From positions 2,460 to 66,459 of IMG/VR virus record IMGVR_UViG_3300014039_000538: a DNA stretch of 64,000 nucleotides. The stretch is one strand, 5' to 3'. The stretch comes from a virus (taxonomy: Duplodnaviria > Caudoviricetes). A program made the translations under genes and the position numbers. Numbering within the stretch: position 1 is the stretch's first letter; every line of letters starts with the position of its first letter. The notes under the pieces were generated by a model. It had not been told where the DNA came from. It ran no database searches and was given only the letters and a program-made list of their open reading frames with translations. Shown one piece after another: positions 2,652-55,624 of this stretch.

Positions 2652-3152
2652 TTATTGCCTCACTCTTTCGCCTTTATTCATAATCTTTGCGCTAATTGCG
2701 TTTGTACTCTTGCGCCAACCTTTCAACAACGCGATTTCTTTATCTATCGTTACCGCATACGGCTCAAACTTCAATAAAGATACCGGCAACACATCGGCGC
2801 AATAAGTAAGTTTCTGCAAAAGCTGCTCGCAGTTCATAATTGCTCTGTCCTGCAAAATCCGCCTTTCCTCAACCTCGCGCATATTTATAGGATAAATGGA
2901 ATTAGCCGCTACGATATTATCCATAAGCTGATTTACCGTAACTATTATCGCTTTTCTAAGGTAATCTACTATCCATTCAGGATACCCCTCGATTGTTGTC
3001 AGTTCCGTATTATTTTCCAAAACCTCTTTATAGATTTTGTTTCTAATACCGAAATCCCTAAGCAGGAATCTTGTTAAATCTTCCCTCAACTGTCTAGCGA
3101 CACTGTAAAACTCCAAGCGTGATAGATTTCTTTTACTTTTAACGACCGACAT
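2652..3152 (-). CDS. avd: DGR accessory variability determinant (Avd-like)
   Basis: 166-aa, predicted helical protein (MSVVKSKRNLSRLEFY...LLKGWRKS) between target gene and TR. Confidence 0.85.
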   Translation of the reverse strand: MSVVKSKRNLSRLEFYSVARQLREDLTRFLLRDFGIRNKIYKEVLENNTELTTIEGYPEWIVDYLRKAIIVTVNQLMDNIVAANSIYPINMREVEERRILQDRAIMNCEQLLQKLTYCADVLPVSLLKFEPYAVTIDKEIALLKGWRKSTNAISAKIMNKGERVRQ

Positions 3153-3195
3153 AATTATCTTTATCCCATTTCCTTGTAAAAATTAAATTTGTAAC

Positions 3196-3251
3196 GGCGG
3201 CGTAAAGCCGCCTTATTAAAGATACAATTCTGTACCTTAGCAGGTACAGAA
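3196..3251 (-). promoter_or_regulatory. Two hairpins downstream of VR1 (DGR target-recognition elements)
   Basis: 10-bp stem 3228-3237/3242-3251 straddling the stop codon; GGCGGC-GTAAA-GCCGCC at 3196-3212. Confidence 0.75.
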
Positions 3252-5318
3252 AGCCGGGGCAACGCCACCGTAGCTATTGCTGGCAATGTCGCTGTCGCTC
3301 GTACCGTCGTTGTTGACATTGCAGGAGGCGGTGGAGCTCGAGGCGTGCGGCGTTGCTTCCCACCACCAAGCTCTTGAACCGTTATATTTCTTACAACGGT
3401 AATATGAAGAATCACGATAAATCGGATACTGGATATTTGTATTCCATCCGTTTTGGTCGTCTCCGTAAGTTGCAACTCCAAAAACTTCTACCTCTGTCGG
3501 CAGGAAAACTGTATTTCTTACCCATTCGGTAGAACTCTTTTTTGAGATTGCCCTGCTGATTGTATACAGATAATCACTTGAACCAAGTGCGGCACCCAAT
3601 CCGAGCGCAAACACGCCGTCAAGGTAAGTTTTCATTGTGCTTACACTGTAACCGCTGGCATTTGTATCAGAATTATTCATTGCTTTTTGTAACACAACAT
3701 TCTTGAAAGTCCAAAGAATATGATTCTTTGTGTTCTCCATAGAACCGCAATGGATGTAGTGATTGAATCCTGAAATCACAATGCGCAAATTCTGATAAGC
3801 GGCGTTCCAAGTGTAGGTAGTACCGTCCACGGTCAATGAGGGCAAATCGAGATAGTCGCCAATCATCAACCCGGAAAAATCAGCCTTGCCCTCGCCGTTA
3901 CATCTTTCGTGCAGAACTTCCATAGCTTCCGCAACCGTTGTAACTCCAAGAACTGTAAGAAGGTTTCTTCCCTCTGTAGAACCTGTGTTTGCGGTTGCTT
4001 CGTCAATCTCCTGCTTGCGCGCAACATCTTCTTTGTCTTTCGGGGCTTTCGCTCTAAACCTGCCGTCTTTATCGCGGATTACTGCCTTGTTTGCGATTGC
4101 ATAAGGTGAAAAGTCGCTCTCAACAAAGTTCAATTCATCAGTTCCAATCTGCTCAAAGTCGCCGTTAAGGTAGAATACCTTGCCTTTGTTTGTAGTTCCG
4201 GCTTTTACAAATACAAGTTTGTGCTTAAATGCAGCAGGTACGCTTGTTGTGTAACCTGTGTATCTGTTCCATGCGCCCGACTGAACTTCATAGAATCCGT
4301 TTTCTTTTGCGTCTGTCTGGTCTTTCAGGAAGACAAGCTGTCCGATTGATACAGAAACGCCGTCAATAGTCATTTCGCCGCCTGTCGCAATATCAACATT
4401 TGCGGTTGAACAAGCAACCGGCAAATCGTCCAAGAGCGAGAATCTTGAAAGAATGTCGTTACTGTACTTGTACAGATTGTTTACATTGTTTGCCAAAGAC
4501 TGAATCAGGCTTGTTACACTTTCGCTAGATGTAAAATCTACGCCGTGTACGCTCATACTCTGCCCTGTAGGAAGAGAAGACCCCATTACCTGCCCTGAAC
4601 CTGTACCAAAGTCAATATTTGCAGCCTTAATGACTGCGTTTTTATGACTTCCGTCTTCATTGTGCTGCACAAGGAAAGTATAGAAAATGTTTGCAAGGTA
4701 TGACGGATTGAAAGTAGCCGCCTTGTTTGTAGTCCAGTCGGTATTTTCTTTGCCGTATTTTCTTGCGTCGATATTCTTGATAAGGTCGCTTGTGATATTG
4801 TTTGTACCTGCCGGGATTCTTACCTCTGCAAGTTTTACATATCCTGCGTCTACTGCCGGAGCGGATTCAGAACCGTTTGAACCCTTCTTAACTACTACAG
4901 TAAGTTTAATACGCTTCTTTGTATTTACTGTCTGTGTAGTTTTTGTACCTGTAGAAGGGTCGTTGAACTTGCGCGACTGTGAATCGTAGCCCTCTTCTTC
5001 TCCCATAACTTCCACAATGTCGATACGGTCAAGGCTACTGTCAGCCTCTTCAAACGATACCGGCTCTGTAGTATCAGTTTCAGCGATACAAACACCTGTA
5101 CTGTCCTTGTATGCGAAAATCGGCTCAATGGAAACATTCAAGCCGCCCGAACCATAAGGTTTTACCTTGCCGCCGATAACATAATCACCGGCGGAATTAG
5201 ACAAAACCGCTTTGAGTGCTACCGCTACATTGTCGATTGATGAATCGTAGCCGAAAGTAACATCAGCCGCTTTCATAATCTCATTTTCTGCCGCAATAGC
5301 CGTTTTGAAATTTGCCAT
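3237..5318 (-). CDS. Tail fibre/receptor-binding protein with C-terminal CLec-type (DUF6273-like) variable domain; DGR target 1
   Basis: Last gene of the baseplate cluster; fibre-like TIDGV...LKDQT...ENGFY segment; WWW..TP...GVAPAF C-terminus encoded by VR1. Confidence 0.85.
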   Translation of the reverse strand: MANFKTAIAAENEIMKAADVTFGYDSSIDNVAVALKAVLSNSAGDYVIGGKVKPYGSGGLNVSIEPIFAYKDSTGVCIAETDTTEPVSFEEADSSLDRIDIVEVMGEEEGYDSQSRKFNDPSTGTKTTQTVNTKKRIKLTVVVKKGSNGSESAPAVDAGYVKLAEVRIPAGTNNITSDLIKNIDARKYGKENTDWTTNKAATFNPSYLANIFYTFLVQHNEDGSHKNAVIKAANIDFGTGSGQVMGSSLPTGQSMSVHGVDFTSSESVTSLIQSLANNVNNLYKYSNDILSRFSLLDDLPVACSTANVDIATGGEMTIDGVSVSIGQLVFLKDQTDAKENGFYEVQSGAWNRYTGYTTSVPAAFKHKLVFVKAGTTNKGKVFYLNGDFEQIGTDELNFVESDFSPYAIANKAVIRDKDGRFRAKAPKDKEDVARKQEIDEATANTGSTEGRNLLTVLGVTTVAEAMEVLHERCNGEGKADFSGLMIGDYLDLPSLTVDGTTYTWNAAYQNLRIVISGFNHYIHCGSMENTKNHILWTFKNVVLQKAMNNSDTNASGYSVSTMKTYLDGVFALGLGAALGSSDYLYTISRAISKKSSTEWVRNTVFLPTEVEVFGVATYGDDQNGWNTNIQYPIYRDSSYYRCKKYNGSRAWWWEATPHASSSTASCNVNNDGTSDSDIASNSYGGVAPAFCTC
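3250..3354 (-). repeat. DGR variable repeat VR1
   Basis: 13 mismatches to TR in 105 bp, 11 at TR adenines and 2 at non-adenines; IMH-like GCCCCGGCTTTC. Confidence 0.95.
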
Positions 5319-53071: not shown

Positions 53072-53129
53072 ACTCCGGCGTAAAGCCGGGTGATTCAAGA
53101 TACTTAATTACACGCTAGTCGCGTGTAAT
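53072..53129 (-). promoter_or_regulatory. Two hairpins downstream of VR2
   Basis: 9-bp stem 53107-53115/53121-53129 over the stop codon; CCGGC-GTAAA-GCCGG at 53075-53089. Confidence 0.75.
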
Positions 53130-53828
53130 CAGGAAAGCCGGGGCAACGCCACCGTAGCTATTGCTGGCATCGGCGTTGTTGCTATAACCGATGCTGTGGA
53201 CACCGCAGAAGGCGGTGGAGATCGAGGCGTGCGGCGATTTCAGCCACCACCACCATATATCACTATCATCGTTTAACACTTTGATTCTGTTTTTTCTTGA
53301 CTTGAAATATTCAAGGTCTTCAAACACCTGCTCTTTTGTAAGCAAGCTGCAATCCTTGACATCTACACCGATAGCCTTAACAAGCGCGTTTCTAAAAGCG
53401 TTTTTGAGATAACCGCCTAATTCTGTTTCTTCAAAGTCGCCGCTCTTTACATAATCTTCATCAATGCAGTGTCTGAAAAGAATATTTTCAAAGTTGAACA
53501 AAACGCCGTCTTTCCTTACATCAACCGCAATTACCGGCACGTTCTCAAGATTGATTTCTTCAAAACTTCCAGTCGCTTTTACTGTAAACTTCTTGATATA
53601 GAATCTGTCGCCGACTTTTACATATTTGTCAGCCTCAAGACTGTTGACTGCCTGTTTCACGTCCCTGAAAGTCATTGGTTTTCCGGGCTTTTCAAGTTCA
53701 CTGCTACAGCCTTTTTCAGATTCATTATCTGATTCAACAAAAATGGTAATACCTTCCGTTTCGTTTTCAGAAAATCCGGCAAGTTTATAACCCTGTTCTT
53801 CGATTGCTTTAATAAGTTCCCATTTCAT
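53115..53828 (-). CDS. DUF6273/CLec-like protein; remote DGR target 2
   Basis: C-terminus WWWWLKSPHAS...GVAPAF encoded by VR2; no signal peptide or transmembrane segment apparent. Confidence 0.9.
   Translation of the reverse strand: MKWELIKAIEEQGYKLAGFSENETEGITIFVESDNESEKGCSSELEKPGKPMTFRDVKQAVNSLEADKYVKVGDRFYIKKFTVKATGSFEEINLENVPVIAVDVRKDGVLFNFENILFRHCIDEDYVKSGDFEETELGGYLKNAFRNALVKAIGVDVKDCSLLTKEQVFEDLEYFKSRKNRIKVLNDDSDIWWWWLKSPHASISTAFCGVHSIGYSNNADASNSYGGVAPAFLITRD
53134..53238 (-). repeat. DGR variable repeat VR2
   Basis: 15 mismatches to TR in 105 bp, all at TR adenines; same IMH-like end as VR1. Confidence 0.95.
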
Positions 53829-53838
53829 ATTTTCCCCC

Positions 53839-54357
53839 TTAGTTTTTTCCGTTCACAAGTTCCTGACGTTCCTGAACTGTCATTTCATTCCACGGCTTAA
53901 CCCCTTTTATGTTTAGTTGTGAGAAAATCGCCATTAAGCAACTTTTCACAATCGCATTTCCTGCCTGTTTGTAAAGCTGCGTTTTACTGTTCACTTCCGC
54001 CGCTCTGTTATAATCAGCGTCCGTGTAGTTCATCAGCCGGAAACATTCTTTAGGCGTTAATTTTCTAATCACGTATTTCATATTTCTTGCCTCTATAACC
54101 TTTGGTTGAATCCCCCCCCCTGCACAAGTAGGGATTGTCGGGCAAACGCCATATCTTGAATAAACGCGGTTCGCGCTCTCAAAAGTATGGTCTATGGTGT
54201 TATCCATTTGCCCTATGACTTCTACGCTATTTTGTCTTGTCAGCACGTTCACCCTCGCATTGTTTGCTCGTAAGGTTGGGCATCCCCCCCAGAAAACTCT
54301 GTTTTCTTGTTCAAAGCCGGATTCTTCAAGTAGTCCAAGCATTTGTAACTTAATCAT
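53839..54357 (-). CDS. C5 DNA methyltransferase C-terminal part (TRD-like units plus motifs IX-X)
   Basis: IRKLTPKECFRLM...LYKQAGNAIV; own AGGAG-N7-ATG; G7 (54284-54290) and G9 (54112-54120) tracts. Confidence 0.85.
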   Translation of the reverse strand: MIKLQMLGLLEESGFEQENRVFWGGCPTLRANNARVNVLTRQNSVEVIGQMDNTIDHTFESANRVYSRYGVCPTIPTCAGGGIQPKVIEARNMKYVIRKLTPKECFRLMNYTDADYNRAAEVNSKTQLYKQAGNAIVKSCLMAIFSQLNIKGVKPWNEMTVQERQELVNGKN

Positions 54358-54553
54358 TGTTTAGCTCCTGCACTAAAAGCGGTATATAACCGCCACCAGT
54401 TCCCATTGACGAACATAAACAAGTACAAACTCCGTCAAGTTTTATGCTTTGGTGTTTTTGCTCGCCGCCGATTATCACGAATACTTGACTAGGTTTTATA
54501 TGAAGTTTGCAAAAATCTGTCCGTCTCTCCAAACGCTTTTTACCAGTTCCCAT
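54350..54553 (-). CDS. Stand-alone TRD-like methyltransferase segment
   Basis: GGAG-N6-ATG; QKHQS...GVCTCLCSSMGTGGGYIPL resembles the GVCPTIPTCAGGGIQP unit of the next ORF. Confidence 0.5.
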   Translation of the reverse strand: MGTGKKRLERRTDFCKLHIKPSQVFVIIGGEQKHQSIKLDGVCTCLCSSMGTGGGYIPLLVQELNND

Positions 54554-54662
54554 AAATCACTCCATTTTGAACATCAAATCCAGTTCCAAACCCCTTGTAA
54601 TCTCTCGCCATAAGAGTTTTTGCTACCGTGTTTCCTACGGTCTTAATTCTCTTGTAGTTCAT
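54540..54662 (-). CDS. TRD-like methyltransferase segment
   Basis: VAKTLMARDYKGFG...QNGVI; this frame is open back to the heptamer repeat. Confidence 0.45.
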   Translation of the reverse strand: MNYKRIKTVGNTVAKTLMARDYKGFGTGFDVQNGVIYGNW

Positions 54663-54797
54663 CAAACAAGGAAACAACTCCTGTTCCGTCAGATTGCAAG
54701 TTTGAGATTCCTGCGTCATATCGTGCTTTAATACAGTTTGCCCTTGAAAGTTTTTTCGGCTCTCGTATTGACAAATCAACTGCACATTGGCATGATT
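54643..54797 (-). CDS. TRD-like segment, out of frame with the MTase N-terminal part at the current repeat number
   Basis: ANCIKARYDAGISN...GTGVV; in frame if the repeat count is a multiple of 3. Confidence 0.5.
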
Positions 54798-55624
54798 CTC
54801 TGCTCTCTGCTCTCTGCTCTCTGCTCTCTGCTCTCTGCTCTCTGCTCTCTGCTCTCTGCTCTCTGCTCGATTGCCGGCAATATACCCCTAGCAACTAAAC
54901 TTTCAATCAGTTTATCCGCCTTTTCGCTCGTGATAAAAAACTGCTCGTCTACTTCCGTTTCTAAGTAGTCGTCTATCACTTTTTCAAGCGGTATGCTTTC
55001 AGGAAAATTAAACTCTATAAAGTCGTCTGAAAGCACACTTACCATAAAGCAACGCTCGCGATTCTGCGCCACTCCGTAATCTGCCGCGTTCATATCCGCG
55101 ATAAAATTACAGTAGCCTCTCTTCCGCAAGAACTCCGTCCAACTGTTAAAGTCGTCAATGTTCTTGTCCTGATGTACCTGCGGCACATTTTCCATAAGCA
55201 AGATGTCGGGAAGATTATCACCGCACTCCGTAAGAATCCGCTCTACTTCCCAAAGCAAACCCGACCGGGTAGACTTACCCTCCAGCCAGTCTTTTTTGCT
55301 CATACCCTGCATTTTTCCTGCCACCGACAAATCGGTACACGGAAACGAGTAAGTAAGTAAGTAAGTAAACTCATTCCGCCTTTCGATTCCTAAGTCAATA
55401 GCGTGTATATCTCTTACGTCGCTTGTTGTAAAGTTTGTGCCGTGAATCGCGTTGTAACTCTTCACTGCGTATTTATCAAACTCAACAAGTTTGTAATGTT
55501 CAAAATCAGCACCTATATCGCGCAATGCCATTGCCTGCGAGCCGATTCCGCCAAACAATTCTATAAGTCTGATTTTCTTTTCCACCTTCACTTCCGGGAA
55601 GTCAAAAAGACTTTGTCCTTTCAT
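54776..55624 (-). CDS. C5 DNA methyltransferase N-terminal part (motifs I-VIII)
   Basis: IELFGGIG, YSFPC, ENV, QNRERCF; stops 7 codons after the repeat. Confidence 0.9.
   Translation of the reverse strand: MKGQSLFDFPEVKVEKKIRLIELFGGIGSQAMALRDIGADFEHYKLVEFDKYAVKSYNAIHGTNFTTSDVRDIHAIDLGIERRNEFTYLLTYSFPCTDLSVAGKMQGMSKKDWLEGKSTRSGLLWEVERILTECGDNLPDILLMENVPQVHQDKNIDDFNSWTEFLRKRGYCNFIADMNAADYGVAQNRERCFMVSVLSDDFIEFNFPESIPLEKVIDDYLETEVDEQFFITSEKADKLIESLVARGILPAIEQRAESREQRAESREQRAESREQRIMPMCS
54798..54867 (+). repeat. Perfect heptamer tandem repeat (CTCTGCT)10
   Basis: Counted: 10 units with 7-nt period inside the MTase reading frame. Confidence 0.95.

Follow-up and report, generated by a model that had tools for sequence, protein, structure and literature searches.

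Multispecific C5 DNA methyltransferases are known from Bacillus phages, where M.SPRI, M.Phi3TI, M.Rho11sI and M.H2I, from the work of the Trautner laboratory, are single polypeptides; to our knowledge, repeat tracts have been reported in none of them. A tract whose length alters the recognition part of an enzyme is known in NgoAV, a Type I hsdS system of Neisseria gonorrhoeae in which one S subunit is truncated. Another kind of precedent is given by C5 methyltransferases made of two polypeptides, which are established together with fragment complementation (PMC3404938). In M.AquI the large chain carries motifs I–VIII and part or all of the variable region, while the small chain carries motifs IX–X, and M.EcoHK31I also uses overlapping reading frames (PMC3404938). 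As for phase variation, phasevarions with tetra- or pentanucleotide repeats in Type III mod genes are known (PMC4525171, PMC7383803). So, multispecific phage C5 enzymes, split C5 enzymes and repeat-driven phase variation are each known; the locus described here and thousands of relatives in gut phages appear to combine the three. In the literature searched, no description was found of a repeat-switched multispecific phage C5 methyltransferase, or of a methyltransferase in which a repeat chooses between recognition modules in overlapping frames.

The locus lies on the minus strand of the window (the whole 64,000-nucleotide stretch of viral DNA analysed) and is the sole PF00145 locus in the 66,459-base IMG/VR provirus. 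A 99%-identical copy occurs in a gut Treponema MAG, and other relatives come from MAGs of Treponema and Clostridia; when the phage database was searched with the DNA, it gave a single distant match, Dulem virus 39 (65.6% over 30% of the query). With a probability of roughly 80%, and judging from sequence comparisons, we interpret it as a contingency locus of a Treponema provirus which encodes a natively split, modular, multispecific C5 methyltransferase switched by repeats.

The layout of the gene was established from three-frame translation and the list of ORFs. The methyltransferase occupies five segments, each shifted +1 relative to the preceding one, with the overlaps that a sequence-only reading had described: 20 nt between A and B (ATG 54662), 14 nt between B and C, and 8 nt between C and D. 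The catalytic core ORF (54776..55624, minus strand, as are all segments and tracts given below; 282 aa) matches PF00145 of Pfam with E=9e-40 over profile positions 2–216 of 324, and all four large-domain motifs can be read in it, i.e., I (FxGxG), IV (PC), VI (ENV) and VIII (QxRxR). It ends 7 codons past a (GAGCAGA)10 tract (54799..54868; 10.3 perfect copies according to TRF) that sets the reading phase. Beyond the tract, the tail A is formed by recognition module A (54643..54798, stop at 54643–54645), and the tail B (54540..54798, stop at 54540–54542) by a stop-free linker of about 46 codons, which runs across the DNA of A, followed by module B (54662..54543). The B frame is open from upstream of the repeat to 54540, so that the overlap of A and B amounts to about 150 nt. 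Cistron C (54350..54553; 67 aa) contains one recognition module and starts at GGAG-N6-ATG(54553), with its ATG overlapping the stop of B, and cistron D (53839..54357; 172 aa), which starts at AGGAG-N7-ATG(54357) and overlaps the stop of C, contains two recognition modules plus motifs IX and X (PF00145, E=1e-7, profile positions 252–322). An internal ORF of D (53839..54081; 80 aa) comprises motifs IX and X only and has GAGG-N8-ATG at 54081. The two ribosome-binding sites assigned to C and D in the sequence-only reading are thus readable in the sequence, and its placement of motifs IX–X on a gene with its own start agrees with the partition of the PF00145 match between the core and D.

The five modules A, B, C, D1 and D2 share, when read in translation, a T-L/I...G...hydrophobic-strand pattern. 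When joined to the core, B extends the PF00145 match to profile position 283 versus only 210 for core-A, which is why B can be regarded as the canonical end of the variable region. The comparison of profiles by hhalign placed A and B in the expected register with a weak alignment (P=0.0018, probability 15%), a suggestion that they are paralogous modules. The AlphaFold2 model of core-B, built on a 15-sequence alignment, had a mean pLDDT of 58, with values below 50 for residues 261–356 (repeat peptide, linker and module B). By layout, the phage-borne core followed by tandem short recognition modules between motifs VIII and IX is like that of the Bacillus-phage enzymes; unlike those single chains, the gene of the window consists of 3–4 cistrons and contains four slippery tracts. 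The closest solved structure by sequence is that of M.MpeI (PDB 4dkj, 8c56), to which the core and motifs IX–X of a fused relative (P0071) align with E=4e-37, with the last module placed just before motif IX. M.MpeI is, however, monomeric and has one specificity (CG), unlike the multi-module split enzyme considered here.

Concerning the heptamer tract, its unit length of 7 nt is not a multiple of 3, and near-identical genomes carry 3, 4, 5, 6, 7, 8, 9 or 10 units. Tail A is read when there are 3, 6, 9 or 12 units and tail B when there are 2, 5, 8 or 11, while 4, 7 or 10 units stop the core just past the tract; with its 10 units, the core as it stands in the window is in the tail-less, OFF phase. 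Natural proteins represent each of these products: core-A in P0001 (317 aa), P0131 (324 aa) and P0132 (309 aa), core-B in P0129 (356 aa) and P0128 (347 aa), and the stopped form with 268, 275 and 282 aa in the 90% cluster of the window. The natural lengths agree with the product lengths simulated for each unit number. In that same cluster, A is found with 3, 6 and 9 units, B with 5 and 8, and the OFF form with 4, 7 and 10, in about 10, 8 and 18 contigs, respectively; these contigs are consensus assemblies, and the phase states are compared between samples, not inside one population. Over 2 kb, two contigs from other samples (L069 and L070) differ from the window only in that they lack 4 heptamer units and one G of the G9 tract dealt with below; the assemblies behind L069–L082 have the accessions ERZ268581xx–ERZ268591xx, ERZ808269 and ERZ808287. 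More generally, 11 contigs from other samples show 0–5 substitutions in 1786 nt, and their length differences are confined to the heptamer (6–10 units) and to two poly-G tracts. Slippage in the heptamer sets which of three alpha products is given. No unit number from 1 to 14 yielded in the simulation a single ORF from motif I to motif X, in accordance with the earlier claim that no repeat number by itself would give a full-length enzyme.

The comparison with other phase-variable systems shows both likenesses and differences. As in phasevarion mod genes, there is an intragenic non-triplet repeat whose unit number varies between near-identical genomes and sets the frame. However, the mod genes encode chromosomal N6-adenine enzymes with simple ON/OFF switching, whereas here a prophage C5 enzyme receives either of two tails or none; besides, unlike in mod genes, the repeat of the window sits past all the catalytic motifs of the alpha chain. 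The likeness to NgoAV is that the length of the tract changes the recognition part and does not merely turn it OFF, and the difference is that here one stretch of DNA encodes two distinct modules in frames that overlap.

The arrangement of A and B in two frames is conserved well beyond the near-identical genomes. A non-triplet repeat is present at the same place in nearly every IMG/VR relative (core 45–69% identical), either as units of 4, 5 or 7 nt in up to 12 copies or as an A8/G8 run. In at least 13 diverged loci, the A frame ends soon after module A and the +1 frame is open across A into a B-type module, while the +2 frame across A is full of stops. Since stop-free windows of 46 codons make up 4.3% of the +1 frame in the cores of these genes (a background of 0.043), the open +1 frame across A in at least 13 diverged loci exceeds what is expected by chance. 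The codon-position entropies across A, read in the A frame, were 0.72/0.62/1.30 versus 0.66/0.46/1.35 in the core, from which it seems reasonable to interpret that A is the sequence-constrained reading, and that the B frame across A is a linker kept open and otherwise free. Which tail continues the frame of the core varies from locus to locus, being A, B or neither, as is expected of a three-phase switch. On the other hand, no conserved start or Shine-Dalgarno site was found for either A or B: no Shine-Dalgarno site lies at a useful distance from the ATG at 54662 in B, in place of which relatives have Leu, Ala or Tyr.

The split of the enzyme into two genes also appears to be native. In at least 10 diverged loci, the alpha stop is overlapped by 10–16 nt by the next ATG, with ORFs of 200–330 aa following, and the GGAG of this junction falls within conserved N-G-V (Asn-Gly-Val) codons, N6-8 before the ATG. 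The B/C junction of the window, with its 14 nt, belongs to this conserved stop/ATG type. Among 30 IMG/VR relatives, 26 are split and 4 are fused, and motif IX is absent from 116 of the 120 nearest proteins; every one of the nearest relatives has the split form, fused forms being confined to more distant ones. In addition, 1319 cluster representatives are downstream-only ORFs, with modules and motifs IX–X but no motif IV, typically starting with MEVKIIG or MAEIKIIG, next to which the family has roughly 7,700 alpha-like proteins. The junctions, the breakpoints and the open +1 frame are retained in lineages that are only 45–70% identical, so homologues do keep the breakpoints proposed from the window. 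This does not hold for the serial +1 shifts considered as a design principle, a candidate that was rejected: most relatives have the downstream gene in the -1 frame (overlaps of 4, 10, 13 or 16 nt), and the serial pattern is particular to the clade of the window.

The fused distant relatives have 418–912 aa, with 3–6 modules per chain in shuffled order, and some have inteins. The shuffling of modules within single chains indicates that the family is modular and multispecific. Intein, Hint or LAGLIDADG domains were seen in many fused relatives (P0134, P0139–P0144 and others), and an HNH-endonuclease-like ORF was seen in L048 (5413–5952) within the downstream gene, between motifs IX and X.

The split of motifs I–VIII and IX–X between adjacent genes, with the cut in the variable region, is like M.AquI by layout. 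There are nevertheless differences, as M.AquI and M.EcoHK31I are monospecific and not phase-variable, while here the large chain has two alternative tails and the small chain is cut again. Of particular interest is L071 (ERZ28633826 scaffold_1360, 3001–4330), a relative at 92% identity whose heptamer tract is down to 2 units and which has lost D1/D2 and, by deletion in frame, module B and the start of C. Its core-A-C is one chain of 340 aa (L071/P0003), accompanied by a natural 95-aa gene for motifs IX–X, and its alpha/beta cut coincides with the C/D junction of the window. L071 has exactly the M.AquI layout and, going by its predicted chains, is a locked-ON two-subunit form.

Besides the heptamer, three tracts of the window may change frame. 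Two of them are poly-G tracts encoding glycine codons of D, G7 in the first module (54284..54290) and G9 in the second (54112..54120), both in frame in the window. At the first, a haplotype that has 5 substitutions nearby shows G8, G9 or G10, and L073 shows G8 with the frame shifted. Of the 10 near-identical contigs that reach the second, 7 have G8 there, although G8–G10 lengths in low-coverage short-read assemblies carry some risk of error. With G8 at the second tract, D is called as an ORF of 87–89 aa (37 aa in L075) plus another of 80 aa, and the latter is called as a separate gene in L069, L070, L075, L077, L078, L080 and L082, where this tract is out of phase. The poly-G tracts in the glycine codons of D1 and D2 thus change length and cut D. 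All the tracts are in phase in 1 of 11 near-identical contigs (L074, with products of 356, 67 and 174 aa), and most have at least one tract out of phase. This out-of-phase majority fits phase variation, and it would also fit a relaxed need for the enzyme in lysogens.

The third of these tracts is (TTAC)5 (55349..55368), in frame in the window and located just upstream of motif IV. No variation of it was found inside the clade of the window; in two other lineages, represented by L020/L024 (1836–1851) and L008 (2688–2703), there are 4 tetranucleotide units and the frame changes exactly there. This tetranucleotide tract may give the catalytic core one more ON/OFF site. A further pentanucleotide tract is present at the 5′ end of the downstream gene in some relatives, such as the downstream-only ORFs P0279, P0283 and P0289, where it shows as period-5 peptide repeats; tract coordinates in the downstream gene of relatives are 664–678 in L004, 3947–3971 in L009 and 3021–3040 in L018. 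In the relatives with the 5′ pentanucleotide tract, the expression of the closing subunit may be phase-variable as well.

Selection was estimated per segment as pN/pS against L071, L072, L073 and L083, with small counts for the short segments: values were 0.08–0.17 for the core, 0–0.3 for A, 0.09–0.27 for B and 0.2–0.49 for C, and 0.10 for the part of D containing motifs IX–X. A value of 0.59 obtained for D versus L073 is unreliable, because the frameshifts of L073 disturb the alignment. No segment looks neutral, and purifying selection acts on the segments (pN/pS of 0.5 or less).

In the mechanism proposed, the alpha chain comprises motifs I–VIII followed by a hypermutable heptamer tract and by two overlapping frames. 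One phase appends module A, the next reads the linker across the DNA of A and appends module B, and the third terminates and leaves the tail-less core, which is the state of the window with its 10 units. The stop of B overlaps the ATG of a downstream gene, taken to be translationally coupled, which in the clade of the window is cut again into C and D, each with its own Shine-Dalgarno site and ATG, and the two poly-G tracts in D are additional frame switches. By analogy with M.AquI, M.EcoHK31I and fragment complementation, the chains would assemble into an active enzyme. If each module gives one target sequence, as the Bacillus-phage enzymes suggest, the phases would change the set of methylated sites, and methylation patterns would be bet-hedged with respect to varying host restriction-modification and methyl-dependent restriction. 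Bet-hedging against host restriction systems is the likely benefit, and a phasevarion-like effect in lysogens is possible.

Since the repeat is placed downstream of every catalytic motif of alpha, a core able to work with C and D might still come from the stopped phase. This opens the way to a more tentative proposal, to which we give rather less than even odds, namely that specificity is switched combinatorially at this locus: the tail-less core would be active together with the downstream chains, and modules would be added or removed independently, A or B by way of the heptamer and D1 and D2 by way of the G tracts, with the 80-aa gene for motifs IX–X acting as a fallback closing subunit. Many heritable methylation repertoires would then arise from one prophage genotype; they would protect the phage from restriction and, in the Treponema lysogen, would also act as an epigenetic switch of the phasevarion kind.

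Several other explanations of the locus were weighed. The sequence-only reading had favoured a multi-subunit methyltransferase with free recognition peptides, with A, B, C and D each translated alone and the peptides joining the core non-covalently. There is an ATG near each junction, with good Shine-Dalgarno sites for C and D, and a B ORF of 40 aa or 81 aa is called in some contigs. Nevertheless, A lacks a start of its own, the ATG of B at 54662 is neither preceded by a Shine-Dalgarno site nor conserved, and in natural proteins A and B are covalently joined to the core, so that the free-peptide explanation as a whole is improbable. What stands of that reading is the existence of more than one polypeptide; A and B, however, are not separate serial genes but alternative continuations of the core, and free peptides do not hold for them. 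Among A, B and C, only C (67 aa) could be a candidate free recognition peptide; it is fused to the core in the 92% relative L071, and we know of no precedent for a free recognition peptide of 67 aa. A different view is that a once continuous multispecific methyltransferase gene was frameshifted, went out of use and is decaying as a pseudogene. It would agree with the lack of a unit number restoring one ORF, with the existence of continuous relatives, and with D being broken at a G tract in many near-identical contigs. However, the length differences among near-identical copies are all in repeat tracts, with 0–5 substitutions elsewhere, pN/pS does not exceed 0.5 in any segment, the split form is found in all of the nearest relatives, and lineages with only 45–70% identity still share the breakpoints, the ATG/Shine-Dalgarno junctions and the open +1 frame. 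Decay, which had already been disfavoured on account of the starts left at the junctions, is quite improbable on these grounds; the outcome that would have spoken for it, with close relatives continuous and segments neutral, is not what was found.

The serial, unidirectional shifts of the window could also bring to mind programmed ribosomal frameshifting, a device used by phages, as a way of joining the segments into one long polypeptide. Against it, the direction of the shift varies, being -1 for the downstream gene in most relatives versus +1 in the window, relatives share neither the sequences of the overlaps nor the C-terminal ends of A, and the B/C and C/D junctions display instead an ATG with a Shine-Dalgarno site; by inspection, no slippery sequence shared among the relatives was found at the frame junctions. 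Frameshifting as the means of expression is thus very improbable. Even less credence is given to an artefact of assembly or sequencing at the repeats. Repeats and G homopolymers are indeed error-prone in assemblies, but the tract does not exceed 70 nt, so that differences of 7–49 nt in it fall within read length, and the same states recur across independent samples and assemblers (SPAdes NODE contigs, a MEGAHIT k141 contig and MAGs). Moreover, the A/B and B/C breaks lie outside any repeat and are identical in all copies.

If the function proposed for the repeat-switched split enzyme holds, the phages and their lysogens would diversify their own methylation patterns stochastically. This would bear on phage host range and on the escape from restriction-modification and methyl-dependent restriction, as well as on how heterogeneous Treponema and other gut bacteria are epigenetically. 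As to annotation, genes of this kind are routinely called fragments or pseudogenes.

Some observations concern the surroundings of the locus. A scan for promoters and terminators gave fewer sites than in shuffled sequence; a sigma-70-like site directly upstream of the heptamer tract (54906–54879, minus strand; TTGAAA, 16 nt spacer, TATATT) was not above chance and probably is a chance occurrence. In L073 (800–2799), a 94% relative, genes for N4/N6 and Dam-like methyltransferases are located just upstream of the C5 locus, with an integrase adjacent; by its gene content, this region is a methylation cluster in a temperate phage. In the window, a DUF6273 gene (53115–53828, minus strand) starts 10 nt past the stop of D and carries a diversity-generating retroelement target, so that the repeat-switched methyltransferase and a retroelement-diversified gene are placed back to back. 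Its variable repeat (53134–53236) differs from the template repeat (2511–2613) by 14 mismatches, all at T positions of the template on the plus strand, i.e., adenine on the coding strand, and a second variable repeat lies at about 3249–3368. A similar non-structural retroelement target beside methyltransferases is described for Quimbyvirus (PMC8008677).
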